Positions 32,836 to 51,310 of a DNA stretch of 64,000 nt are shown in pieces. Below the pieces are notes generated by a model that was not told the origin of the DNA, searched no databases, and was given only the letters and a program-made list of their open reading frames with translations. Origin of the DNA: Longimicrobiales bacterium (GTDB lineage Bacteria; Gemmatimonadota; Gemmatimonadetes; Longimicrobiales; Gaopeijiaceae); the NCBI GenBank assembly GCA_963664435.2, contig CAXXKM010000003.1, positions 1,216,001 to 1,280,000 of the forward strand. Direction: 5' to 3'. The translations under genes and the position numbers were made by a program. Each line of letters starts with the position of its first letter. The stretch's first letter is position 1.

Positions 32836-32888
32836 GGGTCCTCCCTGGGCGACTCACTCAGGCAAGGTGACGGGTGTGCCCACAGGTC

Positions 32889-32929
32889 CGCAACGTCAAA
32901 AACAGACGGCACTACGACATTATCAGACA
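32889..32929 (-). promoter_or_regulatory. Conserved 41-bp upstream motif, copy 2 (upstream of the hybrid kinase operon)
   Basis: Matches 27387-27427 at 31/41 positions, same orientation relative to the downstream gene. Confidence 0.65.
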
Positions 32930-34064
32930 CCTAAACCTGTAGGAATCAGAACTTCAATCTCCTGCGCAGGAGTCGTAACCCATGCGGCGCTCGCCGGTTT
33001 CGCGCTTTCTCCCTGTCATGCGGAGCGCTCTTGACATACCAGCTGATTGTCGGTCTCATTACCAATCTTTCTCTGTAATTGCCTGCTTGCCAGCGCAGAC
33101 ACTCAGGCTCATATATCAACCATATCAGGCTCATACTCCCTGCCCATAGGCGTCCACACCCATGCCCATCTCCCCCGTCATCGTCATTCCCGGGATCACC
33201 GCTTCGGACCTCCACGACGAGTACGAGCTGCCGCCCGAAGCGGTATGGACGACGGTCCTCAGGCGCCGCTACGACCGCGTCACGCTGCACCCGGAGGACC
33301 AGCGCTACGAACTGCGCGAGCCGGCCCGGGTCATGCCGCGCGGCCCCTTTCCGCTCATCTACGAGGACCTGATCGAGGAGCTGCGCGACGGGCTCTCCGA
33401 GGACCAGCCGGGTCCCGTGCCCGTGTTTCCCTTCGGCTACGACTGGCGCATGCCGCTGGACTGGACCGAGCAACGCCTGGCCGCGTTCGTGCGCGAAGTC
33501 ATCGACCGGACGCTGCTCATGCGGCACTACCGGGACGACGAGGCGTTTCGGAACAACCCCACTGTTTCCCTCATCGGCCACTCGATGGGAGGGCTGATCA
33601 TCGCCGGGTACGTCGAGAGTCTTGTCGCCGGGCGCATCCGGAGTCCCACGGGCAGCGGCGCCCTCGTCGACAAGGTCGTGACGCTGGGGACGCCCTTCCG
33701 GGGCTCGTACGAGGCGATCCTCAAGGTGGCCACGGGGACCAGCGAGCTCGGGGACGACTCGGGCAGGGCCCGGGAGCGGCGCATGGCGCGGATGACGCCC
33801 GCCCTCTACCACCTGCTCCCCGGGTCGGCGGGGCCGGTCGCGTCGCACGGCGGCATGGCGGTGAACTTCTTCCGGCCGGATGCGTGGCAGCCGAACGTGG
33901 TTCAGACCATCGAGCATCAGGTCCGCGAATGGGACGTGACCGGGGCGGAGCTGTTCCGGAAGATGCTGGACGAGGCGCGGGCGCACCGCGAGCGGATCTC
34001 GGGGTTGCGGCTACTGAATGGCGGGACGCCTGACGCGGCTGGGGCGTCGGATGACGGAGGGTCG

Positions 34065-34190
34065 GGAGATACGGGACCGTTAGGAGATACGGGACCGCCC
34101 GGAGATGCCGGACCGTTGGGAGATACGGCACCGCCAGGAGATACGGGACCGCCCGGAGATGCCGAAGCCCCCGGAGATGCGGGACCGCCA
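34065..34190 (+). repeat. 7 x 18-bp in-frame tandem repeat encoding collagen-like GDTGPP units
   Basis: GGAGAT starts at 34065, 34083, 34101, 34119, 34137, 34155 and 34173. Confidence 0.92.
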
Positions 34191-34521
34191 GCCGTCGCCG
34201 TCCGCTCGGACGACTGGCTCGCCATCGCGGGGGTCGACTCGAAGACCCGCGTGAGCCTCAGGGTGGTGCGCGACGAGAACGGCTTTGCGCGATTCGACCT
34301 TCGGGGCGCGGAGCGACGCAACGAGTGGGACTCCGACATCGAGGGCAACCGGCGCGACACAGGCGACGGAACGGTCCCGCTGGAGGGCGCGATTCCGCCC
34401 TTCCTGGACGAGGCGCGCGTGGTGTGCGTCACACCCGGCGACTTCGGCTACTGGGAGATTCGCGACCGGGCGCTGACCGCCGCCGCGGGTTTTCACGGGC
34501 TGCTGCCCCGGATGAACATGC

Positions 34522-34530
34522 TGCACCGGC
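34522..34530 (+). repeat. Left att core TGCACCGGC
   Basis: TGCTGCACCGGC (34519-34530) vs TGTTGCACCGGC (48384-48395). Confidence 0.88.
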
Positions 34531-34904
34531 CGAATGGCAAATGCCGCAATCCCGGCGGGAAATCGTATAAAGTCATACAGGACTGCACGATCTGCGTTTC
34601 CTGCCGTTGGGCTCGACCCTGCTGGACCGTACCCCGAAAGCGGGAAAACGGGTTTGAATGGCGGGACTCCCGCCCGCCGCCTCTTCGCCGCCAGAGGTCA
34701 GTGGGGCGCCCTCGCTCGCCTTCTCGAAAAGCAAGATGGTTCAGGCGAATCACCGGTCGGTACTACCGAATCGTCGCTCCGGCAAGGCTCGCCACCGGGG
34801 TCACATCAACCCAGCAGGCGTGGGGCCGACTAGGAGGTAGACCGCCACGGTCCCGGACTACCGACCGGTGCGGAAGCGCCCTCCCGACCCCGGCTTGAAC
34901 CAAA

Positions 34905-34949
34905 CCTCCGTCTTCCCGTCGGGACCCGCGCCCGATGGGAAGGCGGAGG
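34905..34949. repeat. 19-bp inverted repeat (hairpin)
   Basis: CCTCCGTCTTCCCGTCGGG / CCCGATGGGAAGGCGGAGG, fully paired with two G-U pairs, 7-nt loop. Confidence 0.7.
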
Positions 34950-35019
34950 GAACCGGCGCGGCGATCCCGCCACGCTCGCAGGCGTCGTGGCGCCGGGGGT
35001 TGCGCCCTGGGAACCCTCG

Positions 35020-35118
35020 CCCCCCGTCAGCGCCAGGTTCTCCGCGCCCGCGCCCCTTCGGCCGGTAGTGCCGCGACGAGCGGCTTAGCCCCACCAGCAC
35101 GCACAAGCGGGGCTTCAT
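35020..35118 (-). pseudogene. IS3-family transposase remnant
   Basis: RLCVLVGLSRSSRHYRPKG, then after a frameshift AENLAL. Resembles the IS3 OrfB N-terminal HTH region. Confidence 0.55.
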
Positions 35119-35156
35119 GGAAAGCAAGATAGCCTCCGCGAGAGCGCGCGTAAGAC

Positions 35157-36029
35157 TTAGTACACCCAAATACGAACACTCCAAGGGGCGTTCTGTGTGC
35201 CATCCGTGACATTCAGTCTCAGGTCGATCAAACCTGAGACCGGAGGCACGGAAATACGTATGTGGGGATCGAAGGGTGGGTCTGGATTCCAAGCCTGAAA
35301 CCGGCCATGGGGACGTGCCTCTGAGCCTTGAATGACACCGGATTCCTCCAGAAACCGCACGTCTGCGCCGCCACCTGTTGTCACTAGCGACTCTTTGCCC
35401 ATGCCCCACCCGTGGCTGATATGTACACGGCCTTCCTTCTCAACAACCAAAAATTTGCAGTGCGCAACGAACGAAACAGGCATTTCGATTTCCCGTGCTG
35501 GCCCAACTTGCGTCCAGTCACCATCCGCTTGCATATGCGAATAGTCGGGAAGGGGAATCGACACCGTAACAGATGTCGTAAGTGTGTCGCCAACATTATC
35601 CACGATGGTTACGGGCAGATCGTAAAGACCTGGAGTGGCCCAAGACAGTGTTCGTATTACAACGGGACTCCATGTCGGAGGCCATGTGCCACCGGAACCG
35701 CCCCATTGATAGCTAATCCTGCCATCGTCAACGAAACCAGATCCAAACGTAACATATGGCGGCGACCCCCCATACACCAGGGGGAGGGAAGTATGCAATC
35801 CCCAATTGGGTTTGTTCTCAGCTCCTTGGATGGTTGTACATGCTGGCGATAGAGGAAATCCGCCATTTGGGGTTGGTAGAAAGGAGCCCGTCGCGGACGA
35901 AACAAAGGTCAGGTCTTGCTGACGAGCTGACGAAAGGACCATCGTGGGCGCGGTGATGGTTTCCCCGGGTATGGGGTCGTTGGCGCAGGCGGCAACGACG
36001 AGAAGGGCGATGGCGACGCGCTGTAACAT
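35157..36029 (-). CDS. Hypothetical lipoprotein (element cargo, low GC, possible Ig/PKD-like fold)
   Basis: MLQRVAIALLVVAAC lipobox. PGLYDLPVTIVDNVG..TTSVTV PKD-like strand pattern. Confidence 0.65.
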   Translation of the reverse strand: MLQRVAIALLVVAACANDPIPGETITAPTMVLSSARQQDLTFVSSATGSFLPTPNGGFPLSPACTTIQGAENKPNWGLHTSLPLVYGGSPPYVTFGSGFVDDGRISYQWGGSGGTWPPTWSPVVIRTLSWATPGLYDLPVTIVDNVGDTLTTSVTVSIPLPDYSHMQADGDWTQVGPAREIEMPVSFVAHCKFLVVEKEGRVHISHGWGMGKESLVTTGGGADVRFLEESGVIQGSEARPHGRFQAWNPDPPFDPHIRISVPPVSGLIDLRLNVTDGTQNAPWSVRIWVY

Positions 36030-36368
36030 TTTTCTTGGTGGCCTCCTTTTCGTCCGTTCCGAGGCTGGGCTGCAAGCTCACGGCTCGCCCTCGTTCTCGT
36101 CTTGGTCTGCGTTTCCCGCCGAATCGGGCTAGAGATTGCGGGCCGTGGCGGATGTACGCAAGTAGCTGGCAGGCGGTGCTGCGCGAGGCAGCCAACTCCC
36201 GGGGAATGCGAATGCGTCTCAGCCACGCTCTTGGCCCCATGCCGCGATTTGGTTCCGGCGCCCGCAGAACGCAGCAGTGTTCCGATGCCTGCGCGTCATT
36301 GCATGGCGGTGTCATTCCCAATGTGCTGTTGCCAAGCCCTGCGAGACTTGCTTGTTCCCGGGCTGCTC

Positions 36369-39300
36369 TCACCTCCTCCACGCGTAACCGTCCGGAATGC
36401 CCCGGCTGAACAGCGTTTCCAACCTCTGCCCGGCGGCCTGTCCCACCGCATCCGCCGCCGCCTGGGTCGCCGGAGCCGGATCCCGCAGGAATCCGCGCAC
36501 TTCTCCGGTTTGCGCGTCGCGAAGGATGGCCATCGGCTGGTCCGTGGTTTCGTCCAGCACGGCTGAGCCTCCGGGGCCGGATAGCGTGATGCTTGCCAGT
36601 TTGTCCCCCCAGCCCGGTCGGACAGGCAAGGCGAATACAAAGCTGGTCTCCTCACCCTCGGCGTCTCCGATGTGCGGCATATCGAAGGCAAACGAGAAGA
36701 CGGGTGTGCCATCAACGGTCGCACCCTCGATGGTATACTCCCCCCCGGCGACTGGAAGAGAGGGCACGGCGTCAACGACGAACGCGGGATCGAGGTACGG
36801 AACACCATCCTGATCCCGTCCACCCCAGATCAGAAGCGAACGAACGGGCACCGCCTCTGCGGCCATGGCCGCAGAGGCGGTGCCGCCGTTCGCAAGACGG
36901 TGGCTAAGTGCCTTGTTGAAAAAGAAATCGCTGGTCCAGTAGATCCCATGTGTGCAGTAGGACATGACGTCGGCGGCGTGCGGCGTCACCAACGCGTTCC
37001 GTCCGAAGTCGTACCCCCAGGCCCCGATGCTTCCGCCAAAATGCGGGAACCAGGGGTCGACCGTGCGGGGATTGCCACACGGTGCGTGCTTGAGCGAGAG
37101 GTTGTGCCCCAATTCATGGGCGATCGTGGAAGGGTTGCGCGTCGACATGCTCGCCCAGCCAGCGAGGCGGGCGACTCCCGTCGCCGCTGGGCTAGACGAG
37201 AATTCGTTACTATAGTTGGGTTGCCATACGCCCATCCAGTATCCCGAACCGCCCTCCATCACGCGCATCGCGTCTACCTGAGCCAATCTCCTGGAGATGT
37301 CCTGGGTCGATGTGATGACGGGTTGGCGCGCCGAGACAGCGAGTTCCGCTATCGGAAGTAGCATCCGCACGTCGCGGAGCAACTCGTGCCCGTCCGGATC
37401 CGCCGCCATTGCGGAAACGGACTCCACAACGGACGAGTCGGGCTCGGTTTCCCAGAGAAACGGGATAAGGGTCAGGCGCAAGGGCTGCACGGACCGGACG
37501 TCGATTGCCATGCGTCCTTCTTCGGGAATCCGCTTCGTGACTCCAAGCGCGGAGTCCAGCGTCCCTTCAGGATCGACTTCAATCACCATCTCCAAGCCTG
37601 GCACGATGACCCAGTCGGGAATCTCGGCGTTCGCCGACAGCGCAAGATCTCCTTCCATGACCTCTGAGGGGATGAGCCGGGTCGTCGCCGCGATATCGAC
37701 TGAGTGCCGTTCGGCCCCATCGACGAAGAAGGTGGCGCGGACATCGGGCATCGTCGCCGTGCCGGCCTGGGCCGCGGTCACGAAAACGCGCAGCAGCGCC
37801 GGCTTTCCGGCCAGGAGCGGCACGGGATCGTCCCATGACTGCACGCTCTGCGTCAGATACGCCGCCGCCCCACCGTCGCAACGTACCAGGTGGCGGTCGG
37901 CAATGCCCCGGAACCATGCGGCCCAAGCGGCATCCGGCGGCCAGCAGAGCCCGGTGCCTCCCGCCATGAGACGTTCGAGTCCTCCAATGGCCAGAATCTC
38001 GGAAGGCATCGGCCCGGCGAGGTCGGAGTTGTCCGCCAGAATCAGTTGATCTAGCAGGGTGAGGCTGCCGAATTCTGGAGGAACGGGACCGTTCAGCGCG
38101 TTGGATCGCAGGTCGAGATGCTCCAGGTTGGTGGCGCGCCCGAGTTCAGCGGGCAGAGCCCCGGAGAGTGCATTGTTGCCCAGATCCAGCGTGACCAGGC
38201 TGCCGAGACGGCCCAACTCACTCGGAATCGATCCAGAGAGTTGATTGTCGGAGAGCTCCAGCGCCCAAAGGTCGCCAGATCGCCCCAAGTCAGAAGGGAT
38301 CGATCCGGAGATCTCGTTGCCGGAGAGCCGGAGCTCCTGGAGACCGGCGAGGCCGCCGAGTGCCGAAGGAATGCTCCCGCTCAGTCGATTGCGGGAAAAG
38401 TCCACGGCGGACAGGCGGTCTAGCGTGCCAAGCTCGGGCGGAATGCGGCCCGTCAGTTGGTTATCAGCGAGCCGGATGGATATGAGCGCTGAGATCCTGC
38501 CGAGTTCCGAAGGAATGCTCCCGCTCAGTTGGTTGCCGACGAGTTCGAGCCGCTCGAGACGACTCAGATTGCCCAATGCGGCCGGAATGGAGCCTGAGAG
38601 GAAGTTCCATTTGAGGTCCAGCCTGGCGAGATCGGCGAGGTTGGCCAGTTCTTCTGGGATTTCGCCTGTGAGTTCATTATCCCTAAGACTGAGCTGCCGC
38701 AAAGGGACCAAGTCACCCAGCTCCGGCGGGATCGTCCCCGATATCCGGTTTCTGAAGAGGTCAAGTCCTCTCAACTCCGACAACCCGCCAAGCTCCGAAG
38801 GAATGCCGCCGTAGAGCTGGTTCCCCGCAAGGTCAAGCCACTCAAGATGGTCCAATTCACCCAACTCGATTGGGATCCGGCCGGACAACCCGTTGAACGG
38901 TAGCCGCAGTACGACGACCCGGCCGGCGGCATCGGTCTCCACACCGTGCCATTCGGCCAACGGTGCATCGGTGAGCCACCCCGTATTCTCGTTCCAGTTT
39001 CGGCCATCCGCATTCCGGTACAACAGCTCGAGAATGTCACGGTTCGTAAGAGGGGGACACGGCACTCCTGTCCCGGTGTGGCGCGGGATGCCGTTCAGCC
39101 AATCTTGGAAGCCGGCATCGTCCGCCACGCACAGGGACGTGCCCCGGTAGTCGAGCTCCTCCAGTTGCACCTCGGTCAGCGACAGAGGCAACCGGCCGGA
39201 CAAGGCGTTGTCCCCGATCCGCAGCTCCGTGAGGCTGGCCAGCAGGCCAAGCGCCTCCGGAACGTGGCCCGACAACGCGTTGCCGCTCAGATCGAGACCC

Positions 39301-41297
39301 GAGACCCGACCGATCGAATCCGTCCGCACGCCATGCCACCGGTCCAGGTTCTCGTCCTCCAGCCAGCCATCGGACCGCGTCCAGCCGGATCCGTTCGTGG
39401 CCTCGTGGAGGCTCTCCAGCGCGTCGGCATCGATCTCGTCGCAGAATGCGATATCCACCGCCCACTCGATGTTCCCGCGAGCCTCCACCTGCCGCGCCCA
39501 CTCCCTGAACTCGTCCGTCGCGGGCAGGCATACCCCCTCGGTTCGCCGGCAACCTATCGTCTGAAGTCTGTTCAGACCGATAAAACTCAACGGGAGGGAG
39601 CCCGTCAGGAGGTTGTCGGTCAAAGTAAGTCCTTCCAATGCAGCGAGGCTTCCGAGTTCCGTCGGCACCGCGCCCGTCAGTTCATTGTTGTTCAAATTCA
39701 GATTGCGCAGATGGGTCAGTTTCCCCAGCTCCGGCGGGATCGGACCTGTCAGTGCGTTACTCGACAGTGACAGGCTGGTCAGATTGGCAAGACCGCCCAG
39801 CTCCGGTGGGATCGGGCCCGTCAGACCGTTGTCATAGAGCCATAACCACCACAATCCCTCGATGTTGGCCAACTCTGGCGGAATCCGGCCTGTGAGGTTG
39901 TTCCCGTCAAGCAGCAGCCACCGCAGGTTGGCAAGGTTGGCCAGCTCCGGCGGGATCGGGCCCGCCAGATCGTTTTGCCGCAAGTTCAGATCGCGAAGTC
40001 CGGCAAGTCCGCCTAGCGATGGCGGAATCGTACCCGTCAGATTGTTCCATCCCAAATCAAGGTCTGACAACCGCACCAGATCGGCCAACTCCGGTGGGAT
40101 TGGGCCCGTCAGCTCGTTGTCGCGCAAACTAAGCACGCGCAGGTTGGAGAGGTCCCCGAGCTCTTGGGGAATTGTGCCGGTCAGGACGTTCCCTCGGAGG
40201 GAAAGTGTTTCGAGATTCGCAATTCCGCCGAACTCCGGCGGAATAACACCGAACAGTCGGTTCAAACCGAGGTTGAGATGCCGCAAGTTCGCAAGATTCC
40301 CCAGCTCCGAAGGAATGGTGCCCGTGACGGCGTTGATCCGGAGGCTGAGCACCTCCAGGGACGTGAGGCGCCCGAGTTCGGGCGGAATCGGACCCAGGAG
40401 GCCATGAGGCACTTGTTCCCGTCCTTCCCACACGCCGTCTAGACGAATGCCCACCACCCGCCCCGACGCGTCGGTCTCCACCCCGTACCACTCCCCCAAC
40501 GGCGCGTCGGTCAGCCAGTTGGTGTTGTCGATCCAATTCGGACCGTCGGTGGCCTCGTAGAGGGCTACCAGGGCGGTTCGGTCGGTATTCTCCACCGTTG
40601 TGACCTCGGCAGTGCCCGAGTATTCGCTCGCCGTCGCCGTGATCGTAGCCGTTCCTTCGTCCACTCCGGTCACCAACCCCGAGTCGTCCACCCGGGCCAC
40701 GAGCGTGTCGCTCGAAGACCAAACGAATTCCGTCACCGCCGCCACGCCGTGACCGTTCGCGTCGGTCGCCTCGGCCACCAGACGCACCGTGTCCCCGAAC
40801 GCCACCAGGGTGTCCGCCGCGGGCGACAAAACGACTGCGATCACCACCTGGGCCACGGTCACTGCCGCCGTGCCGGAGCCCGAGCCCGCCGTCGCGGTGA
40901 TCGTTGCGGTCCCGTTCCCCGCTGACGTCGCCAGCCCCGTCGCGTCCACCGACGCGACCGAAGCGTTGCTGCTCGCCCACGCGACGGCGGTTCCCGCCAT
41001 CACCTGCCCGTTCTGGTCGCGTACCTCGGCCGTGAACCGGGCCGTCTCTGCGAGGGCGCTCAGTGCGGCAGAACCTGGGCTGACCGCCACCGTGGTGGCC
41101 ACGGGAGTCGGTGGAGGAGCAGGCTCGACGGCGCCATCGCCGCAGGACAGGACCAGCACCGCGGTCGCGGCGATGGCCGAGATCGCGAAGCGCGCGCTCA
41201 AGCGTCCCGGTCGACCATCGCCCCGCCTCCGGCGAATGTGCCAACGGTGCATCCCTGCCCGACCATCTTCGGAAAGCCCTCTCGATTGCATGTCCAT
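36369..41297 (-). CDS. Giant surface lipoprotein: 2x Big_2 + two plant-receptor-like LRR blocks + C-terminal zinc metalloprotease (M66-like)
   Basis: VLSC lipobox, Big_2 repeats, many 24-aa LxxLxLxxNxLxGxIPxELG repeats with LY.AT.G..W....WL caps, AHELGHNLSLKHAPC (HExxHxxxxxH). Confidence 0.88.
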   Translation of the reverse strand: MDMQSRGLSEDGRAGMHRWHIRRRRGDGRPGRLSARFAISAIAATAVLVLSCGDGAVEPAPPPTPVATTVAVSPGSAALSALAETARFTAEVRDQNGQVMAGTAVAWASSNASVASVDATGLATSAGNGTATITATAGSGSGTAAVTVAQVVIAVVLSPAADTLVAFGDTVRLVAEATDANGHGVAAVTEFVWSSSDTLVARVDDSGLVTGVDEGTATITATASEYSGTAEVTTVENTDRTALVALYEATDGPNWIDNTNWLTDAPLGEWYGVETDASGRVVGIRLDGVWEGREQVPHGLLGPIPPELGRLTSLEVLSLRINAVTGTIPSELGNLANLRHLNLGLNRLFGVIPPEFGGIANLETLSLRGNVLTGTIPQELGDLSNLRVLSLRDNELTGPIPPELADLVRLSDLDLGWNNLTGTIPPSLGGLAGLRDLNLRQNDLAGPIPPELANLANLRWLLLDGNNLTGRIPPELANIEGLWWLWLYDNGLTGPIPPELGGLANLTSLSLSSNALTGPIPPELGKLTHLRNLNLNNNELTGAVPTELGSLAALEGLTLTDNLLTGSLPLSFIGLNRLQTIGCRRTEGVCLPATDEFREWARQVEARGNIEWAVDIAFCDEIDADALESLHEATNGSGWTRSDGWLEDENLDRWHGVRTDSIGRVSGLDLSGNALSGHVPEALGLLASLTELRIGDNALSGRLPLSLTEVQLEELDYRGTSLCVADDAGFQDWLNGIPRHTGTGVPCPPLTNRDILELLYRNADGRNWNENTGWLTDAPLAEWHGVETDAAGRVVVLRLPFNGLSGRIPIELGELDHLEWLDLAGNQLYGGIPSELGGLSELRGLDLFRNRISGTIPPELGDLVPLRQLSLRDNELTGEIPEELANLADLARLDLKWNFLSGSIPAALGNLSRLERLELVGNQLSGSIPSELGRISALISIRLADNQLTGRIPPELGTLDRLSAVDFSRNRLSGSIPSALGGLAGLQELRLSGNEISGSIPSDLGRSGDLWALELSDNQLSGSIPSELGRLGSLVTLDLGNNALSGALPAELGRATNLEHLDLRSNALNGPVPPEFGSLTLLDQLILADNSDLAGPMPSEILAIGGLERLMAGGTGLCWPPDAAWAAWFRGIADRHLVRCDGGAAAYLTQSVQSWDDPVPLLAGKPALLRVFVTAAQAGTATMPDVRATFFVDGAERHSVDIAATTRLIPSEVMEGDLALSANAEIPDWVIVPGLEMVIEVDPEGTLDSALGVTKRIPEEGRMAIDVRSVQPLRLTLIPFLWETEPDSSVVESVSAMAADPDGHELLRDVRMLLPIAELAVSARQPVITSTQDISRRLAQVDAMRVMEGGSGYWMGVWQPNYSNEFSSSPAATGVARLAGWASMSTRNPSTIAHELGHNLSLKHAPCGNPRTVDPWFPHFGGSIGAWGYDFGRNALVTPHAADVMSYCTHGIYWTSDFFFNKALSHRLANGGTASAAMAAEAVPVRSLLIWGGRDQDGVPYLDPAFVVDAVPSLPVAGGEYTIEGATVDGTPVFSFAFDMPHIGDAEGEETSFVFALPVRPGWGDKLASITLSGPGGSAVLDETTDQPMAILRDAQTGEVRGFLRDPAPATQAAADAVGQAAGQRLETLFSRGIPDGYAWRR

Positions 41298-41360
41298 CTC
41301 TCCTCGCCCTGCCCGCTTCGGTGTTCGGGCTTCCTGTCGCATCGGCCGCGCGCCGGACGT

Positions 41361-41386
41361 ATCACGAGTTATTTAACAATCGTGAT
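41361..41386. promoter_or_regulatory. AT-rich imperfect palindrome upstream of the LRR gene
   Basis: ATCACGA-GTTATTTAACAA-TCGTGAT. Confidence 0.45.
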
Positions 41387-42015
41387 CATTGCGCGAGCTA
41401 TCGGCTCGTACGCATGAGATTACCGTGGCCGGAGAACAGCTGGCAAGGACGACCTACCGGTCACCAAGTTGCGTTCAATTCCCTAGCGAGCCTTCAGGGA
41501 GCGGGATGGGGCGTTCTTGCGAGCCGCTGGCGGCGGGGTCCAGCCGTTCGCGTGCCTTCTCGGACTACATCGGCCACGGCGGACAACAGGACGTTCCCCA
41601 CGGGTTGACGTCCTTGCGAACGGCTTTGCAGCGTTCCGGTTATGGAGACACTGAAGCAGCAGTTTCAATCGCACGCGAGCGAAGCCGCGGCCCACCTGCG
41701 CGGGCGGGTGTGGGCGCTCGGTGCCGAGGACAGCCGCCACCGGATCGGGAAGAATAGGGGCTCTGGGCGGCGCTTAGGCGACGGCGTGCGCGAGGGAACC
41801 CCAAGCCGGGATCCCCTCGTTGAAGACGCCGATGCGACGCGTTCAGCCGGAGCTTCCGCGGCCGCTCCGGACTGGCTTGTCGGACGCCGCTAACTAAGGA
41901 CGGGGAGCCAGCCGGACCCGCGCAAACCGGACGGCCATCCCGAAACCGCTCCACCACGGAGACTCCACGGGGGTCGCTCGGCAAGCCGCTGGCGGCGGCG
42001 TCCTTCGGCTGCTTT

Positions 42016-42048
42016 ACGTTATCGAACATCCTCGAACGTTATCGGACA
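42016..42048. repeat. 13-bp direct repeat with 20-bp period (iteron/operator-like)
   Basis: ACGTTATCGAACA (42016-42028) and ACGTTATCGGACA (42036-42048). Confidence 0.6.
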
Positions 42049-42416
42049 ATAGGCGATTATCCGCGAGTTGACTCGTCTGCCAGCGACCCTTCACCGTTCG
42101 GGGATGGAGACGCTGGAACACTCGTTCAACGTGCCGATTAGGGCGCTCCTCGGGCGGGATGGAGAACCCGCGTCGCGCCTCCACTGGCGACGGGTGGCCG
42201 AACCCGAATCCGGCAACCCGTTGCCCCGTCGAGATGTGGGAAATGGCCTATTTCCCACTCGCTTGCGCGGCTTGCCGACACCGTGTTCGGGTTGATGTGC
42301 ATGGAGATCGTGACCAAACAGTTGGAGACCCCGCCGAGGAGCGTCCTCCGGTGTCGATTCGTTCCCCGTCCCAGCGGCTCCGCGAGCCGAGAAGGCTCGG
42401 AAGAGGGGGACCTGCG

Positions 42417-43352
42417 ATGATCGCCCACCTGAAGGGACGGGAACAGGCGCTGGAACCCTTGGGCCTGACCGGCCGCCGGGCCGAATGGATCGCGCTGGCG
42501 AGCCTGCACGGCGGCGTGTTCACCCGCGCGCAGCTTTCGGACTGGCTCGGGGCCAGCCGCTTCAAGGTGCTCCGGCTCATTCAGGCCCTGACGGAGCGAA
42601 GGCTGGTGACCGAGGAGACGGTCGGAGGTCTCAAGGTCTGCCGGGTCTGCGCGCGCGGCATCTACCGGGCGCTCGCTGCCGAGGACATCCGCCACCGAAG
42701 GATTACCTCGACCGAGGTGGTCATTCGCCGCCTGCTCTCTTTCGACTACGTGATCGAGCATCCGGACCTGCCCTGGCTCCCGACCGAGTCGGAGAAGGTG
42801 GGTGCGTGCGAGGCGCTCGGCATCGACCGCTCGCTCATGCCCGTCCGGGTCTATCGGGGCGCGGTCGGCGGTGCGCGGCGCTACTTCCCGCGCGGGATGC
42901 CCGTGGCGCTGGACTCTTGCCGCGCCGTGTTCGTCCACGCCGATCCCGGCTACGACACCTCGACCGCGCTCCACTCGTGGCGGGACCGGCACCGGAGGCT
43001 CTGGGAGGCGCTTAGAGAGGACGGCTTGTCGGTCGAGGCCATCGGGGTCGCAGGCGGCCGGAGGGAACTCGTTCGAGCGCGGACGATCCTCGGGAACTGG
43101 ACCAATGCGGACACGGCCCAACGTTCCGTGCATCCGCCTGGGACCGTCGCCGCGGCCCGGCGCGAGGCCGCACGGGTCGAGAACGCCATCCGGGGCATGG
43201 ACGACGCGACGGTCGAGGAACTGGGCGGTCTCAACGGCTGCCTTCGCCGCCTCGTCGAGATGAGGGAACTGCTCCGTTCGGCCCGTCCCGAAGGCACGAT
43301 CGACGGCCATTCGGTATGGCGGTCGAGCCGTCTTTCCGGAGTCCGAATTTGA
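42417..43352 (+). CDS. Element backbone protein; N-terminal wHTH-like region, candidate non-canonical relaxase/replication protein
   Basis: GAGGGGG RBS, GVFTRAQLSDWL..VLRLIQALTERRLV wHTH pattern, directly upstream of the T4CP once IS110 is removed. Function inferred. Confidence 0.6.
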   Translation: MIAHLKGREQALEPLGLTGRRAEWIALASLHGGVFTRAQLSDWLGASRFKVLRLIQALTERRLVTEETVGGLKVCRVCARGIYRALAAEDIRHRRITSTEVVIRRLLSFDYVIEHPDLPWLPTESEKVGACEALGIDRSLMPVRVYRGAVGGARRYFPRGMPVALDSCRAVFVHADPGYDTSTALHSWRDRHRRLWEALREDGLSVEAIGVAGGRRELVRARTILGNWTNADTAQRSVHPPGTVAAARREAARVENAIRGMDDATVEELGGLNGCLRRLVEMRELLRSARPEGTIDGHSVWRSSRLSGVRI

Positions 43353-43639
43353 GTGCCGTTCGGGGGAGCCCGTTGCCGATCCGGAGGTGTGAAATCGACA
43401 TCGGGGTGCTTGTGCACGGAAATGCCGCTGTGTTGTGCGGAACGTGGGTTCCGCAAGTCTCCGGACGGCTTGGGGTTGGGCCACGGCCCGCGGATCGCCG
43501 GTGCCGATCCGGGTCTCCGGGCCGTGGACGGGAGCGACCCGGCCCTTCGGGATGCCTGGTGCGGCATCGGGGCGGTTCGGCATGTGCAGGCCCATGCCGC
43601 CCTCCCCGCCGGGTCGCTTGTCTCTTCCATTCTTGGAGA

Positions 43640-43866
43640 TCCCTGCTTGATTTGCAGGTCCGGGTCACGGGGATGGCCCGGTGTGCTGGATGCCCGCAGA
43701 GGCGAGCGGAGCGAGCCGGAGCGGGCATCCAGCACAGACGGTGGTCGGGCCGTCGGGTCGCTGGCCGCAAGGGCCGTACGGGAGTTTGGTCGCCACCGTC
43801 TTTCCCACGTCCTGAATGGATACTTGAGCATCGAGGCTCGCACGACAAGCACAGGAGAAAGGGAAA
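43640..43866 (+). ncRNA. Predicted IS110 bridge RNA (5' hairpins, target-binding loop, donor-binding loop)
   Basis: Target guides CGGGTCGCT 43754-43762 and GTACGGGAG 43776-43784. Donor guides ATGGATACT 43816-43824 and GACAAG 43844-43849. Each pair sits in an internal loop closed by stems. Transcript ends approximate. Confidence 0.88.
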
Positions 43867-43870
43867 GCAC

Positions 43871-44872
43871 ATGAGCACCAGCCGTCGCACCGTCGGGATC
43901 GACATCTCCAAGGACTGGCTCGACGCCTTCGCGGCGCCCGAGGGGAGAGCGTCCCGGTTCTCGAACGACAGGGCCGGCTTCCGGAAACTGATCGCTTGGA
44001 TCGGCTCCGGGATCGACCGGATCGCGTACGAACCCTCCGGAGCCTTCCACCGCGACCTCGAGGACACCCTCCTGAAGGCCGGACTCCCCATGTATGCGAT
44101 CAACCCCTTCCAAGTCCGGTCCTTCGCCCGGTCCCTCGGCCAGCGAGCCAAGACCGATGCCGTGGACGCCCGGATGCTGGCCATCATGGCGTCGGCCATC
44201 GAAGACCTACGCCCGGCGCAGGCGAAGTCCGAGGGGCAGCGCGACCTTGCCGAGCTCCAGCAGATCCGCGACGCGCTGCGCAAGGACCGGACCGCCACCT
44301 CCAACCGCGGCAGGCACTTGCGCACTCCCGTGGGCAAGCGGGTCACCAGGCAGAGGCTGAGGCAGATCGAGCGCCAGCTGAAGCTCATCGACGCAGAGAT
44401 CCGGCAACGGGTGGAGGAGGAGAAGGCGCTGGAGCGCCGGGCCGAGATCCTGACCTCGATCCCGGGCATCTCGGACATCACCGCCGCGGGACTGATCGTC
44501 CACTTGCCGGAGCTCGGCACCCTCACCGGCCCCCGCGCCGCCAGCCTCGCCGGACTGGCCCCGGTCACCCGGGAGTCCGGACACTGGAAGGGACGCAGCT
44601 TCATCCAGGGCGGCAGGCGCCGGGTGCGCCAGTTGCTGTACATGCCCGCAGTGGCTGCGGTCCAGCACAATCCCGACCTCGGGCGCAAGTACGAAGCGCT
44701 CGTGGCTCGGGGCAAGCCGCCCAAGGTCGCCCTGACGGCCGTGATGCGGAAGCTCCTCATCCTCGCCAACGCCCTGGTGCAGCAGGACCGCACTTGGACG
44801 GCGCACCCGCCGCGGGAATACTCCTGCCCGGCCTTCCCGACGCCCAGCCCGGCGGGGAGCGTTCACGGATGA
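43871..44872 (+). CDS. IS110-family DEDD recombinase/transposase (333 aa)
   Basis: VGIDISK (D), AYEPSG (E), AKTDAVDA (D,D), SIPGI, GLAP..RESG (Ser), VRQLLYMPA, ALTAVMRKL. Confidence 0.96.
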   Translation: MSTSRRTVGIDISKDWLDAFAAPEGRASRFSNDRAGFRKLIAWIGSGIDRIAYEPSGAFHRDLEDTLLKAGLPMYAINPFQVRSFARSLGQRAKTDAVDARMLAIMASAIEDLRPAQAKSEGQRDLAELQQIRDALRKDRTATSNRGRHLRTPVGKRVTRQRLRQIERQLKLIDAEIRQRVEEEKALERRAEILTSIPGISDITAAGLIVHLPELGTLTGPRAASLAGLAPVTRESGHWKGRSFIQGGRRRVRQLLYMPAVAAVQHNPDLGRKYEALVARGKPPKVALTAVMRKLLILANALVQQDRTWTAHPPREYSCPAFPTPSPAGSVHG

Positions 44873-44958
44873 TCGAGCCGGGCAAGAACGGGCACCGCAA
44901 CGGAAGCATCGCGAGGGGCGCTGCGAGACACGTCGCTCCAAGAAAATCGGGCATCCGC

Positions 44959-44964
44959 TTGACA
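44959..44964 (+). promoter_or_regulatory. -35 box (TTGACA) at the IS110 right end, forming a junction promoter on circularisation
   Basis: In the circle: TTGACA-17 nt (TGGATACTTGTCTCTTC)-CATTCT (43628-43633), upstream of the bridge RNA. Confidence 0.75.
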
Positions 44965-45004
44965 TGGATACTCCCGTACCAACGATCCCTCCGGGAAGGG
45001 GGCT

Positions 45005-47032
45005 TTGCCGATGAGGAACTCGACGGTCGCCGTCATCGGTGCCGCCATCGGAACGGCGGGCGCGCACGCGCTCGAACTGCCGTTCCCTGCCATCGGCGAC
45101 AACCCCTATCTCGACCTGATCGCCCACAACGATCCGGGCATCCACGCCGCCATCCGCATCTGGTACTACGCCTCGCCCGGCGTCGCGGTCATCCTCGCGG
45201 GCGCGCTCGTCCTCTCGGTCTGGCGGGTCTGGTTGCAGCCCCTCTTCAGGTTCCGGCGCAAGGGCAAGTTGCCCAGGTGGCCCACCTCGCCGAACGACGA
45301 CGCACCCTCTCTGGTAATCGGCGAGACGCACCACCCGACCGTGCCGCGCGAGAGCGAGCGGCCCTCGTGGCTCGTCGTCCCCGAAAAAGGGCTCTACACG
45401 GGCGTGCTCGTCGTCGGGGCCGTCGGCACCGGCAAGACCACGGCCTGCATGTACCCGTTCGCCAGGCAGCTTCTCTCCTGGCGCGCGGATGATCACCGCA
45501 AGCGCGCGGGCGCGCTTGTGCTGGAAGTCAAAGGAGACTTCTGCCATCAGGTTCGGAGCATCCTTGGCGAGGCCAGACGAGAGGAGGACTACCTCGAAAT
45601 CGGGCTCGGCGGCTCGTGGCAGTGGAACCCGCTGGACGATCCGCTCCTCGACTCCTACTCGGCGGCCTACGGCGTCGCGTCGCTCATCAACCAACTCTTC
45701 GGCAAGAGTAGGGAACCGTTCTGGCAACAGGCGTACACGAACCTGGTGCGGTGGATCATCGAGGTCCACCGCATCCTGCCGGGCGGCTGGGTCACGCTCC
45801 GGGACATCTACCGCTGCACCGTGGACGCGGAACTCCTGGGGCGGAGGATCGGCGAGGCCCGGAGGCTTGCGGACCGGCTCCGTCCGAAGCGCGCCGTCAT
45901 CTCGCACGAGGACATGATCGCCCACCCGCAGGCGCTGGAGGAGTGGGCGTGGGAGCGCGTGCCCGGCACCGGCAGCGTGGGGTGCCGTCTCGACCCGGAA
46001 CTGGGATCGCGGCTCGACGAACTTGGCGTCGCCTTCGAAACCGAAGAGGCCGACGGAGGCGCGGGCCGGGAGATCGCCGAACAGGTCGAGGCCATCGAGC
46101 GATGGTACTCCCATGACTGGATGGCGCTGGACGCAAAGCTCCGCACCTCGATCGTCGAGGGCATCAGCGTCTTCCTCTCGCTCTTCGACCTGCCGGACGT
46201 GGCCGGGGTGTTCTGCCCGCCGCCACCCACCGAGACTCCGTCCGCCGAGAGCAACGAAACCAATAGCAACAGCCATCCCGTGCCGGGACTTCGCCGGAGG
46301 CTGCCGCCGCTCGCGCAGCTGATCGACGAAGGCAAGGTCCTCGCCCTGAACATGCCCGCCGGAGCGAACCCGGCGCTCGCACGCGCCATCGGCGTGCTGC
46401 TCAAGAATGCCTGGATGCAGGCGCTGCTCCGGCGTCCGGCCGAGGCCGCCCGCCGTCCCGATCGCTACATGCGGCCCGCCGTGTTCATCTGCGATGAGTA
46501 CCAAGCGTTTGCGACCGTCGGACAGGACGATCCGTCCGGCGACGAGAAGGCGTTCGCGCTCACGCGGCAGTGCCGCTGCATCCCGATCGTCGCCACGCAG
46601 TCGATCTCGTCGCTCCGCTCCGTGCTTCCCTCAGGCGAGGCGTGGCGCACGCTCGTCCAGACGCTCCGCACCCGGATCTTCCTGTCGCTGTCCGACGAGG
46701 CGTCGGCCCGGATCGCGTCCGAGATGTGCGGCTCCGTCATGAAGACGCGGGCCTCACACACGTTCACCGAGACCACGGGCAGGCCCGAGTTCTCGCTCCT
46801 CTCCGGTCGCGCCGGAGGGGGACGGGGCACCATCGGCGCGAGCAAGTCGTTCCGGCAGCAGAGGGAGCCGGTGTTCACGCCGCGCGAGTTCGGGCTGCTC
46901 GCCAACTACCAGGCGATCTGCCTCCCCTACGATGGCGTGAAATCGCTTCCGGCCCGCCGCGTCTACCTGAAGCCCCACTACCTGCCGAGGGAGACGGGCT
47001 ACTGGCGGCTTCGCGAGAAGGGGCGGATATGA
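45005..47032 (+). CDS. Type IV coupling protein (VirD4/TraG/TraD-like ATPase)
   Basis: N-terminal TM helices, Walker A GAVGTGKT, LEVKGD, WNPL, Walker B FICDEYQ, VATQS. Confidence 0.88.
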   Translation: MPMRNSTVAVIGAAIGTAGAHALELPFPAIGDNPYLDLIAHNDPGIHAAIRIWYYASPGVAVILAGALVLSVWRVWLQPLFRFRRKGKLPRWPTSPNDDAPSLVIGETHHPTVPRESERPSWLVVPEKGLYTGVLVVGAVGTGKTTACMYPFARQLLSWRADDHRKRAGALVLEVKGDFCHQVRSILGEARREEDYLEIGLGGSWQWNPLDDPLLDSYSAAYGVASLINQLFGKSREPFWQQAYTNLVRWIIEVHRILPGGWVTLRDIYRCTVDAELLGRRIGEARRLADRLRPKRAVISHEDMIAHPQALEEWAWERVPGTGSVGCRLDPELGSRLDELGVAFETEEADGGAGREIAEQVEAIERWYSHDWMALDAKLRTSIVEGISVFLSLFDLPDVAGVFCPPPPTETPSAESNETNSNSHPVPGLRRRLPPLAQLIDEGKVLALNMPAGANPALARAIGVLLKNAWMQALLRRPAEAARRPDRYMRPAVFICDEYQAFATVGQDDPSGDEKAFALTRQCRCIPIVATQSISSLRSVLPSGEAWRTLVQTLRTRIFLSLSDEASARIASEMCGSVMKTRASHTFTETTGRPEFSLLSGRAGGGRGTIGASKSFRQQREPVFTPREFGLLANYQAICLPYDGVKSLPARRVYLKPHYLPRETGYWRLREKGRI

Positions 47033-47130
47033 AGCGCGAGGCACGAGCCGATCACGCAACTGGCGGACAAGCCGCTTCCCCGCGAGCTTTCGGGCAGGCA
47101 GATCGTGCAGTCCATCTTCGGAGGAATCGA

Positions 47131-48294
47131 ATGATGGCACGCACGAAACGAGGTCGGCGCAGCTACAGCGCCGGAGAATGGGGCCGGAACCGGGTCCGGG
47201 TGTTTCCGGATCCGAAAACCGGCCTGCTCCAGATCGAGTGGCGGGAGAACGGTCGCAGGCTGAGCCGGTCGCTGAAACACCGCGATTGGGCTCGCGCGAA
47301 ACGGCAGGCGGATGAAGCCGCCGCGGGCTTCGCGATGTACGAGCCCAACGGCAAGGCCGAAGCCGAGCCCGAGCCGCTCACCCTGGAGAAGCTTTTTGAC
47401 ATCTACCGGGAAGAGGTGACGCCCACCAAGGGTGAGCCCACCCAGTGGCACGACAAGGCCGCGATGCGGATGTTTCTCGGGTTCTTCGGAATAAGCCGAA
47501 ACCCGGCGACGCTGTCGCAACGGGATTGGGATCGGTTCATCCGGGCGCGGCGGTCGGGTAGGATCGGACCGAGCGGAAAGCCGGTGTCCGACCGGACCAT
47601 CGAACACGACCTGAAGTTCCTGATCGCCGTCTTCAATTGGGCGGCCAAGTCGAGGGACGAGCAGGGTCGTTTGCTCCTTGAGTCGAACCCACTCAAAGGG
47701 CTGAAGGCGCCGACGGAGAAGAACCCCACCCGGGTCGTGATGTCCGACGAGGACTATCAGGCGCTTCTTGAAGTATCTCGGCAGGTCGATTGGCGGTTCC
47801 ACGTCGCGCTCGTGCTCGCACACGAGACCGGACACCGCATCGGTGCCATCCGCCACCTGCGGTGGTCTGACATTAGTCTTGAGGTAGGGACTATCCGATG
47901 GCGTGCTGAGCACGAGAAGACCGGTTACGAGCACCGAACGCCGGTGACCGCAGAGGCGCTTGCCGTGTTGGAAGAAGCCGCGAGACGCAGACCGGGAGTC
48001 GAAGATGCTCCGGTGTTGCCCACGCCTACGGATAGCTCAAGATGCTTGAGCCGCTCGCTGAGCTACGCTTGGTGGAACAGGGCGCAGGAACTCGCACGGC
48101 TGGAGCCGAAACCTGGCAGGGGCTGGCACTCGCTGAGGCGCAAGTTTGCTTCGGACCTCATGAACCAGCCCCTCAAGGTGCTGTGTGAACTCGGAGGCTG
48201 GAAGACGGCCCACACCGTGCTCCGGTGCTATCAGAGGGCGGACGAGGCACAGCTGAGGGAGGCGCTCGACAGTCGTCGCCGAATTCGGGCCTGA
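47131..48294 (+). CDS. Tyrosine recombinase/integrase
   Basis: ETGHRIGAI (Arg), EKTG (Lys), WHSLRRKFA (HxxR), LGGW, CYQ (Tyr). GGAGGA RBS. Adjacent to the right att. Confidence 0.93.
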   Translation: MMARTKRGRRSYSAGEWGRNRVRVFPDPKTGLLQIEWRENGRRLSRSLKHRDWARAKRQADEAAAGFAMYEPNGKAEAEPEPLTLEKLFDIYREEVTPTKGEPTQWHDKAAMRMFLGFFGISRNPATLSQRDWDRFIRARRSGRIGPSGKPVSDRTIEHDLKFLIAVFNWAAKSRDEQGRLLLESNPLKGLKAPTEKNPTRVVMSDEDYQALLEVSRQVDWRFHVALVLAHETGHRIGAIRHLRWSDISLEVGTIRWRAEHEKTGYEHRTPVTAEALAVLEEAARRRPGVEDAPVLPTPTDSSRCLSRSLSYAWWNRAQELARLEPKPGRGWHSLRRKFASDLMNQPLKVLCELGGWKTAHTVLRCYQRADEAQLREALDSRRRIRA

Positions 48295-48386
48295 GCCCAT
48301 TTGGCGGGAATGGAATAGCGGGAGTCCGGTCGGTTGCACTCGCTAGTCTAGTATTAGCAACGGGATATGAACTTGTGTGTATCTGT

Positions 48387-48395
48387 TGCACCGGC
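48387..48395 (+). repeat. Right att core TGCACCGGC
   Basis: Exact copy of 34522-34530. Confidence 0.88.
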
Positions 48396-48508
48396 TCATC
48401 CTCCGCTTCCTGCTGGACCGGGGCGATCCCTACGGCAACACCTGGGGGCGGCGCCTGCCGGGGGTGATGCGGTGGAATCCCCCGCTGGAGCTGGCGGAGA
48501 AGGGCTGA
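48396..48508 (+). pseudogene. Displaced 3' end of the alpha/beta-hydrolase gene
   Basis: Joined to 34530 it reads LILRFLLDRGDPYGNTWGRRLPGVMRWNPPLELAEKG*, with host-like GC3 codons. Confidence 0.88.
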
Positions 48509-48733
48509 AGTCGACCCGACCCCTGCGCCGGACCGCGCTCCCCTCAACCAAGTGCACCCGAAAATGACCGAGGAGTGAGCGTTAATGGCTGATCCGTCCT
48601 CGGCGTGACGCTAAGTCCATCAGGAAACGTGCTTTGCCACGCATGGCATCCTGATTTGACATGGTTTCGGGCGGGGGATACCGTCACTTGTCGGGTTGTC
48701 GTCCCCGGCCCCCCCTCGAACCCCCGTGCGCTC

Positions 48734-49708
48734 ATGATCGCGTTGTACTATGACACACGTGATTTGCGGGACCGGATCGAAGGGTTGCTGGCCGACGCGG
48801 AGCTGTATTCCACGCTGGACCGCGACGAGTTTCAATCGCTCATCGCCGTGACGGACGTCGGCATCGCCGGATTGCAGCGCTGTTCGAGTGCCGATGTCGC
48901 CTGGCTTCGAGGGGCGTTCGGCCAGGGGTTCGCCAGGCCTTCCTGCGTCGTGGTGACGCCGCTGTCGCTGGCTCGCCTCCAGCGGCTCCGCTCGGTCGAG
49001 TCGCACCGGTTTCAGGTCGTGTGGGAAGAGGAAGCGCACGATCATCTCAGGCCGACGCTGGGCCGGGTCAACCTCCTCCACCGGGATCCGCTGCGGCTTC
49101 TCGGCCGTCGCATGCTCTGGGCCGGTGCACTCCACTGGTCCATGGTGAAGGCGGTCGAGCGCATCTGCAGGGTCTCGGACGAGTGGCGATCCGGCCCCCC
49201 GGCGAAATCGGTCCGGGATCTCGCGGAGGACATCGAATTACCCCCCGAGACCTTCCGCCGTTACTGGAAGGAGTACATGCCGCTTCGGTGCGGTCCCAAG
49301 CAGCTCCTCAGCTGGGCGCTGCTCATATGGGCCCTTGGCGAGCGGCCGAAGACTCGATGGGACGCGATCGCCGGCCGGGCCCGTGTGCGCCGCCGCACCC
49401 TGGAGCGACACAGTGTGCGCCTGGTGGGGTGCACGCTCTCGACTGCGGCCCGCGAACCGGCCCTGGTTCGGCGCCGCTTCCGGCGGTGGGTCTCGGAGGT
49501 GTCGTACGTGAGCCCGCCTGTCGTCCCCCCGCTCCTGTCGTCCATGCCGCGTCCGCGCGACACCCGCATCCAGCGTCAACGGGACGACGTCGTCGGCTCG
49601 TCCGGTCTCTTTGCCGCCGGCCGGCGCTGGTCGGTGCTGCCGGGTTCACCGGGCCGCCGGAACATGCCGGCGGATTTCGTTGCCCAGGCCATGATGGCCG
49701 GGCAGTAG
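48734..49708 (+). CDS. Putative transcriptional regulator, paralog of 27770..28567
   Basis: Collinear similarity: CSSADVAWLR, CVVVTPLSLARLQRLR, FRRYW, PLRCGPKQLLSWA, RRTLER, RRFRRWV. Confidence 0.65.
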   Translation: MIALYYDTRDLRDRIEGLLADAELYSTLDRDEFQSLIAVTDVGIAGLQRCSSADVAWLRGAFGQGFARPSCVVVTPLSLARLQRLRSVESHRFQVVWEEEAHDHLRPTLGRVNLLHRDPLRLLGRRMLWAGALHWSMVKAVERICRVSDEWRSGPPAKSVRDLAEDIELPPETFRRYWKEYMPLRCGPKQLLSWALLIWALGERPKTRWDAIAGRARVRRRTLERHSVRLVGCTLSTAAREPALVRRRFRRWVSEVSYVSPPVVPPLLSSMPRPRDTRIQRQRDDVVGSSGLFAAGRRWSVLPGSPGRRNMPADFVAQAMMAGQ

Positions 49709-50911: not shown

Positions 50912-50947
50912 GGTCATGGATGTTGTATTTAACCAACATACATGACC
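50912..50947. promoter_or_regulatory. Inverted-repeat operator upstream of hipBA
   Basis: GGTCATGGATGTTG-8 nt-CAACATACATGACC (13/14 match). TTGACG at 50896-50901. Confidence 0.65.
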
Positions 50948-50968
50948 TTTGAGCAGGGTAAAATATAC

Positions 50969-51310
50969 ATGCCTGTCGGACGCAGGACTGCATCGTCCCC
51001 GCCAGCCGCAGTCGACGGGGCCCTGAGACGGCTGGGGCGCAACATCCGCATCGCTCGCTTGCGCCGGCAGCTGCGCATCCAGGACCTGGCCGAGCGCATG
51101 GGGGTTTCGCGGTTCACGGTCGCCGACCTGGAGAAGGGCAAACCGGGCACGTCGGCAAGCGCCTACTTCGGTGCGCTCTGGGCCCTCGGCCTGCTCGGCG
51201 ACGCGGAGGCCCTCGCCGATCCGGATCACGACGAGGAAGGCCGAGTCCTGGAGAGTGCCCGCGCCCCCCGGCGCGCCGCCCGTCCCGGACGCCTCGACAA
51301 TGACTTCTGA
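50969..51310 (+). CDS. XRE-family HTH antitoxin (HipB-like)
   Basis: LGRNIRIARLRRQL..DLAERMGVSRFTVADLEKG. Overlaps the hipA start. Confidence 0.85.
   Translation: MPVGRRTASSPPAAVDGALRRLGRNIRIARLRRQLRIQDLAERMGVSRFTVADLEKGKPGTSASAYFGALWALGLLGDAEALADPDHDEEGRVLESARAPRRAARPGRLDNDF

Follow-up and report, generated by a model that had tools for sequence, protein, structure and literature searches.

A site-specific integrative element that splits a hydrolase gene in a Longimicrobiales bacterium, and a candidate RNA switch on its integrase gated by circularisation

Integrase-only islands in which neither repressor nor excisionase is evident remain quiet after integration and nevertheless integrate when they arrive, and how they do so is poorly explained. 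The question is raised here by a 13,865-bp element with a tyrosine integrase in a Longimicrobiales bacterium (Gemmatimonadota; GenBank assembly GCA_963664435.2). The element lies in a stretch of 64,000 nucleotides (nt), contig CAXXKM010000003.1, positions 1,216,001 to 1,280,000 of the forward strand; this whole stretch is the window, and all positions refer to it. The genome carrying the window (4.5 Mb, 68% GC; the window is on contig C3) belongs to a bacterium that is probably sponge-dwelling, and several sequencing runs containing the window wholly or partly are labelled sponge metagenome. We describe how the element splits a hydrolase gene at a specific site, and a pair of complementary segments placed at its left end and in the leader of its integrase gene. 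The best explanation of the whole, which we favour with some reserve, combines an RNA switch on the integrase, gated by circularisation, with a selfish site-specific knockout of the hydrolase.

The gene split involves the following features.

33162..34528, plus strand: 5' part (codons 1-456) of an LCAT/LPLA2-like alpha/beta-hydrolase gene with a PF02450 (LCAT) match.
34522..34528, plus strand: attL 7-bp overlap TGCACCG; the 9-bp direct repeat extends to 34530.
48387..48393, plus strand: attR 7-bp overlap TGCACCG, 92 nt past the integrase stop.
48394..48508, plus strand: stranded hydrolase 3' end (37 codons and stop), encoding what is left of the last core helix, followed by a well-ordered tail that contains invariant residues.

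The original prediction, made from the sequence of the window, was that an element splits a lipase-like gene and leaves one 9-mer at both ends, and the reading frames, the database match and the spanning contigs agree with it. The 9-mer, TGCACCGGC, lies at 34522-34530 and again at 48387-48395; it has 92 copies genome-wide, and its repetition is by itself weak evidence for an insertion. At the left copy the hydrolase frame terminates in ...PRMNMLHR, and at the right copy LILRFLLD...EKG and a stop continue in frame. Removal of the element in silico gives 494 codons (456 + 37 amino acids and the stop), and the best database match to the N-terminal frame is an intact natural protein of 493 amino acids (aa), P0004, which is 97% identical, ends in the stranded tail, and shares 442 of 456 residues with the 5' part and 35 of 37 with the 3' part. 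The expected restoration of a 493-aa open reading frame (ORF) by precise excision thus has a natural counterpart. The displaced C-terminus, which intact homologues had been expected to share, is present in 113 of the best 120; the seven tail-less ones break exactly at MNMLHR (four) or diverge sooner (three). As was also anticipated, the element supplies no replacement 3' end, and the integrated allele reads through 122 unrelated foreign codons, to 34898. Since single contigs of runs X1, X4 and X6 span attL and attR, the junctions are not an assembly error. An element with a tyrosine integrase has interrupted a hydrolase of LCAT/LPLA2 fold at codon 456, and the target is, as proposed, a protein-coding gene and not a tRNA gene.

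A structure model of the intact protein (mean predicted local distance difference test score 75) is nearest to Tle4, lysosomal phospholipase A2 and LCAT. Its putative triad, S141, D402 and H445, is invariant in 79 homologues and lies entirely N-terminal of the break. The break at 456 severs helix 453-463 and removes the confidently modelled tail, with loss of the invariant residues F461, D467, W473, G474, P486 and L489. Because part of the last core helix and the conserved tail are lost, the truncated hydrolase is probably inactive even though the putative catalytic triad is kept. A role of the hydrolase as a defence gene was considered and dropped, as PADLOC returned no match. At 34068-34193 an 18-nt tandem repeat encodes a low-complexity GD(T/A)GP(P/L) linker, the copy number of which differs between alleles (475-496 aa).

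One option of the original prediction had been an integrase of low specificity, which would make the split a transposon-like chance insertion. It is true that the family uses many 7-mers and targets, and that the sister of the hydrolase-site clade, at 86% integrase identity, uses a different overlap whose right flank is similar (GCTCGTC vs GCTCATC). However, the same overlap in the hydrolase gene is also occupied in three other genomes, G012 (both junctions), G017 (attR) and G061 (attL), so that the hydrolase junction recurs in four genomes, and it recurs in four further protein clusters. The G012 and G017 integrases are 87% and 84% identical to the one described here, closer than any paralogue within the host genome; the three integrases that could be obtained for this site make up a single clade (SH-aLRT 92), and on the tree, computed with a quick version of tree search, integrases group by target. 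The 7-mer overlap occurs 786 times in the genome, whereas GC-overlap-GCTC occurs just twice. Chance insertion is largely refuted by this recurrence of the site, and we give it next to no credence.

Empty sites, predicted to exist in relatives, were found in 13 of 18 congeners; the site is occupied in two, and in three the gene was not detected. Occupied and intact alleles fall in common 90% clusters in three cases, and the tails attached to occupied alleles differ. A family search with the 40-aa tail found no further occupied site. To judge by these comparisons, insertion is recurrent and site-specific, and occupancy is the minority state. The original prediction had left a choice between simple knockout and excision-controlled switch. 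A knockout, in the form of a selfish site-specific one, is the likely reading; the switch, for which the 13 empty congeners and the other data gave nothing positive, is a formal candidate only. Two further alleles are worth recording. In G011 the hydrolase is cut near codon 121 by another family member of ~20 kb, in reverse orientation and with nested left ends (L034:448-813, L035:2489-3520). In G017 (L033, C62), which has attR, the nearest left end upstream shows an overlap of tRNA-Leu type, and no 5' part of the hydrolase was found in the assembly; nested insertion, a deletion or a gap in the assembly could each account for this.

The integrase family has 28 matches in the host genome, at many different targets, matches in 17 of 19 genomes of the genus, and relatives in 55 of the 201 genomes sampled from the phylum; the loci are mostly from Longimicrobiales or Gemmatimonadota, one being from Ca. 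Palauibacter rhopaloidicola. Element ends were located by anchoring on conserved arm motifs. Mapping of the insertion sites of homologous integrases, proposed as a check, gave 37 elements paired end to end; in each, the two ends share a 7-mer at fixed geometry, and this 7-mer differs from target to target. The recombination core of the present element is accordingly the overlap TGCACCG, with GC on either side in the target, at family-wide fixed distances; the attP flanks resemble TCYGC and GCRGA. Targets include tRNA genes, a dispersed palindrome, HNH-domain genes (domain assigned by eye) and sibling integrase genes. RNA-guided targeting, similar to that by bridge RNA, was rejected: target flanks were not seen in the element ends by inspection, and the choice of target goes with overlap and integrase clade. 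A large clade (e.g. L041-L064) targets the centre of the dispersed palindrome ACCCTGACGT(A/T)ACGTCAGGGT. Two integrase clades hit the same HNH-domain-like gene (again by eye) ~14 bp apart (L039, L056, L061, L065). Insertions in sibling integrase genes lie at about codons 48 and 54 (G000 C2:112768-129506, C1:1571207; L122, L123, L143, L152).

The second part of the argument, which goes beyond the scope of the original prediction, concerns an RNA lock on the integrase and its trigger. The relevant features are these.

34553..34606, plus strand: left-end RNA stem-loop (GGCRRGAA / TTCYTGCC stem) with the trigger in its loop.
34580..34595, plus strand: trigger, 16 nt, exact antisense of leader 47098-47113.
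47098..47113, plus strand: trigger-binding site, consisting of the 5-nt toehold GCAGA and the 5' arm of the lock hairpin.
47103..47146, plus strand: predicted lock hairpin, leader arm against start codon and codons 2-4.
47120-47124, plus strand: Shine-Dalgarno sequence GGAGG, in the lock hairpin loop.
47134..48294, plus strand: tyrosine integrase, 386 aa, PF00589 above cut-off.

Thus a 16-mer located 51 nt inside attL is the exact reverse complement of a segment of the integrase leader. Both copies are present in nearly every member of the family, and nearly unchanged among siblings in the host genome. The variants behave as an RNA duplex on the plus strand would, and the leaders vary almost solely by A>G. 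Among 71 leaders there are 30 A>G changes, one T>C and one transversion, and an independent set of 27 leaders has 11 A>G, no T>C or G>A, and two transversions. The picture is noisier in the 81 left ends, which have 25 G-U-permissive changes, eight of A-C type (four of them at the compensated position) and seven transversions. Within 34 intact paired elements (the 37 paired elements minus three with a broken leader), the changes amount to 25 G-U pairs, two compensatory replacements of U-A by C-G, and one mismatch. The commonest variant is scattered across the integrase tree, and the three variable leader positions are those left free by the local hairpin. The stem that presents the trigger also covaries: over 82 left ends it has 534 Watson-Crick, 79 G-U, 16 A-C and 26 other cells, and the minus strand gave no consensus fold. 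In Rfam there were no matches at E<=1 within 33000-49000 of the window, and in three distant loci tRNAs only. Some leaders (L135, L137, L144, L133 (second int), L187) are without toehold and outer arm, by replacement or insertion, and one element sits in a sibling leader between trigger-binding site and Shine-Dalgarno sequence, where it would delete the 5' arm of the lock.

The inverted 16-mers might instead be DNA sites of a single protein (the arm domain of the integrase, a directionality factor or the winged helix-turn-helix protein listed below) that shapes attL and attP and regulates the integrase promoter, RNA pairing being incidental. Sites shared between att arms and promoters are known for P2 Cox and KplE1 TorI, the spacing between the left copy and the overlap is constant, and matched changes in both copies would be expected here too. 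The observed variants, however, are asymmetric as G-U pairing predicts: the position 12 variant of the leader is found in 20 of 71 leaders and its equivalent in one of 81 left ends, and the position 3 variant of the left end in 17 of 81, with its equivalent in one of 71 leaders. In addition, the pairs of distant elements extend over 20-28 nt with wobbles and bulges, and the winged helix-turn-helix gene is missing in 26 of 39 mapped elements. We regard the DNA-site explanation as highly unlikely, and it is very likely, from complementarity and covariation, that leader and trigger form an RNA pair.

The pairing extends well beyond close relatives. We drew on 40 further integrase loci. Among them, elements with 43-51% integrase identity keep the lock hairpin with a different sequence. 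In a blind duplex scan over 8-18 kb of upstream DNA, the best partner of the leader was at the left end in seven of ten distant elements (43-50% identity), again with a sequence unlike that of the present element, 40-56 nt inside an att repeat of 18-45 bp (z -3.8 to -6.2). This count covers elements with at least 7 kb of upstream DNA; L157, L163, L165 and L166 (<4 kb) were excluded. An eighth distant element had its left-end partner via an exact seed. The blind scan found no left-end partner for L161 and L164, and for L162 the left end was not top-ranked. The own left end was the best or tied partner for eight of nine distant leaders, and the opening cost (see below) dropped in eight of eight. 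As far as sequence comparison can tell, pairing is conserved from 100% down to ~45% integrase identity and spans families within the phylum.

What would the pair do? According to a consensus fold of 77 leaders the AUG has a mean unpaired probability of 0.01, and the predicted lock hairpin has 14 bp over the start codon and codons 2-4, with the Shine-Dalgarno sequence in its loop. Codons 2-4 hardly change at their silent positions (GCA, for example, is found in 64 of 66). The computed cost of opening the ribosome footprint is 18.5 kcal/mol for the locked leader vs 12.1 for 42 control starts, where starts labelled hth and IS110 were disregarded as off their ATG. With the cognate left module the predicted cost falls from 18.5 to 11.1 kcal/mol, near the control value; a drop of >3 kcal occurred with 33 of 33 cognate modules, one of 33 reverse complements and one of 33 shuffled ones. 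Our first reading, that pairing blocks a standby site and so represses, was dropped when a fold including the first codons had the locking arm removed by the trigger. It is quite probable, on these models, that pairing activates translation, and repression by pairing is possible.

The position of the two segments suggests how such a switch may be tied to recombination. In the integrated state the leader hairpin would lock the integrase start codon. Excision, or the circle, would bring the trigger loop to the far side of attP, downstream of the integrase gene. The integrase mRNA of the circle would then run through the right arm (92 nt), cross the overlap and pass 51 nt of left arm before it reaches the trigger. 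The trigger would bind the GCAGA toehold, displace the 5' arm and free the start codon, so that integrase would be produced while the element is circular or incoming and would lead to integration. After integration the trigger would again lie 12.5 kb upstream of the leader, the integrase would be off and the element stable. No terminator-like site was found from the integrase stop to attR, and a T4 run is present in just three of 73 right arms. The tRNA-Ile genes in which distant elements sit are transcribed towards the right end of the element, and the target gene is therefore not a general source of trigger; the circle is the simplest one, because it is common to all members. A silent integrated state fits the stable junctions observed, with contigs of X1 and X4 passing both junctions unbroken and depths of 18-23 over flank and element alike in the X1 contigs. 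A sigma-70 junction promoter formed at attP was considered and rejected, as the overlap and the first 20 nt vary. We think it somewhat probable that the RNA pair is tied to circularisation. A wider version of this recombination-state toehold switch, in which a sense-oriented host transcript may also supply the trigger in trans, calling for a repair excision, and may wake sibling elements, is in our estimate slightly below an even chance.

Several points weigh against a circle-gated activating switch. Searches for the empty-site and circle joints, which the original prediction had proposed to make in reads, found none among 15 of 27 joints listed in four metagenome contig sets (contigs drop rare variants). 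Contigs of run X5 ending at 34541 or starting at 48408 do not coincide with where an empty allele would branch and were not counted. No RNA run was among those containing the window, and transcript, reporter and excision product are unobserved. No excisionase was recognised among the ORFs scanned, small ORFs not having been searched systematically. The drop in opening cost is partly by construction, any antisense to the arm giving a drop. Full-length minimum-energy folds of attP-crossing mRNA models form the long-range duplex in 15 of 33 cases, including this element, and 19 of 33 stay locked, while integrated-state transcripts are locked in 29 of 33; the two states are near in energy. A smaller Shine-Dalgarno hairpin persists after trigger binding, and pairing might repress or cause decay. 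The compensatory change of U-A to C-G is probably one event in a single clade. Finally, a TAAGTT-like hexamer lies ~7 nt ahead of the trigger in many left ends.

The hexamer also speaks for a different arrangement. The left module might be an independent small RNA, transcribed from a promoter of its own, that in trans switches integrase leaders on or off, whatever the recombination state and possibly across siblings. The near-identity of the 16-mer among sibling elements of one genome would suit such an RNA, as would a trigger placed in a loop, like the seeds of classical antisense RNAs. Yet the covarying stem begins ~24 nt inside the overlap and thus upstream of the hexamer, and a transcript starting at the trigger would lose its 5' arm. 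A similar TAA-anchored motif stands in the right arm with constant spacing from the overlap, which looks like a protein site, and a sigma-70-like promoter was not found in 32800-36400, a weak test in this phylum. We consider an independent small RNA unlikely.

A host-coupled gene-integrity switch would use the same lock in another way: hydrolase transcription through attL would give the trigger in trans, unlock the integrase, excise the element and restore the hydrolase on demand. The hydrolase gene does lead directly into the trigger in sense orientation, the integrase is intact, excision would restore exactly 493 aa, and the insertion is site-specific and unrepaired, the pattern termed regulated gene integrity in PMC10111431. 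On the other hand, the joints and unbroken contigs described above give no sign of excision, with element depth close to flank depth; most congeners lack the element and three of 18 lack the gene; the G011 insertion and the HNH-gene and distant tRNA-Ile targets are in the opposite orientation; and the attached tails vary between occupied alleles. Such coupling is in our view decidedly unlikely, and the circle-gated switch with a selfish knockout is retained.

The proposed switch can be set beside several known systems. Integrative mobilizable elements carry lambda-type tyrosine integrases, and the present element is like them in its 7-bp overlap, arm-like repeats, coupling protein, cargo and absence of mating-pair genes; it differs in that relaxase and excisionase were not recognised, and in that most mapped members are without a coupling protein. 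In phage lambda, an RNA structure in sib, beyond attP, leads to decay by RNase III and lowers Int when the phage is unintegrated; there, as proposed here, RNA past attP controls the integrase by recombination state, but with the opposite sign, the distal RNA pairing with the leader here and being predicted to activate. In the anti-antisense activators DsrA/RprA-rpoS and RNAIII-hla and in synthetic toehold switches a trigger RNA displaces an inhibitory arm. The start region in a hairpin, the toehold and the predicted arm displacement are similar, whereas here trigger and target lie within a single mobile element, and site-specific recombination decides how they are linked. The skin, comK and mutL elements are examples of regulated gene integrity. 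HE-PICIs are another, and by PMC10111431 a site-specific insertion that leaves its target gene unrepaired qualifies as a candidate. The element resembles this class in that a site-specific integrase clade breaks a protein gene and attP holds no replacement fragment; it departs from it in that occupancy is the minority state, many unrelated genes are hit and regulated excision was not seen.

Another comparison is with Pcirc of ICEclc (PMC5812530), in which joining of the att ends puts a left-end element beside the integrase gene, and integrase is up in the circle, which is thought to aid reintegration. Both systems would link a left-end element to integrase control in the circle through the joining of att ends; however, ICEclc moves a promoter upstream of int, a transcriptional device, whereas here int faces att and the antisense loop arrives downstream, with a predicted translational effect. 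In Tn916, int transcripts cross the joined ends in the circle only and express promoterless transfer genes, and insertion is without homology (PMC5812530). An int-containing transcript across the joined ends is proposed here as well, but read-through would leave the integrase mRNA with a regulatory 3' tail, and insertion is via a matched 7-bp overlap.

The remaining features of the element, which runs from attL through a non-coding left arm, two minus-strand cargo genes, winged helix-turn-helix gene, IS110, TraD-like gene and integrase gene to the right arm, are as follows.

34640..34666, plus strand: two GCGGGA direct repeats, putative left-arm integrase arm-type sites by sequence.
35157..36029, minus strand: cargo ORF, 290 aa, without Pfam, NCBIfam or PADLOC match.
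36369..41342, minus strand: cargo surface protein, 1657 aa, immunoglobulin-like, leucine-rich-repeat and M66-peptidase-like.
42417..43352, plus strand: conserved 311-aa protein with N-terminal winged helix-turn-helix, a conceivable relaxase or regulator, in 13 of 39 mapped elements.
43617..44970, plus strand: IS110-family insertion sequence between the winged helix-turn-helix gene and traD (contig joint 43616-44971).
45005..47032, plus strand: TraD/VirD4-like coupling protein, TraG-D_C and TrwB_AAD_bind above cut-off, in six of 39 mapped elements.
48303..48325, plus strand: two GCGGGA direct repeats, putative right-arm arm-type sites whose repeat matches the left arm.

In the integrase, R235, K262, H332, R335, W356 and Y366 are all present, which we take to be the tyrosine recombinase catalytic set. 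Copies of the IS110 element 100% and 99.9% identical to it lie on contig C2; its insertion is recent, and it could be polar on traD-int or bring a promoter. The sole match of the 311-aa protein is to winged helix-turn-helix domains (best Z 7.5). Its identity as a relaxase was unsupported by Pfam (69 members), PDB sequence search, Atlas and fold search, in which the N-terminal domain only was really tested. An oriT was not located in the element; of the features that define integrative mobilizable elements, a coupling protein is present. Outside the element, 30495-32835 (minus strand) encodes a GAF/PAS region and a histidine kinase-receiver-Trans_reg_C hybrid; the two frames concerned overlap and may be a single frameshifted gene. 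Paralogous unannotated regulator-like ORFs (27704-28567 and 48734-49708) flank the region, the right one being also 3' of the hydrolase tail in G012 and G017, and 50942-52562 holds a pair of helix-turn-helix antitoxin and HipA-like kinase.

RNA control of an integrase of this kind is apparently undescribed; a full-text search, with most subscription papers outside its coverage, gave no account of this RNA switch or of these elements. The gene split alone is an ordinary case. If the switch is true, the family offers a compact, protein-free answer to how integrase-only islands stay quiet in the chromosome and still integrate on arrival, and it would be a translational counterpart to promoter capture in ICEclc and retroregulation in lambda. 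It would also give a concrete route by which host transcription may signal to the integrase of an element, in a family whose many closely related integrases differ in their 7-bp targets.

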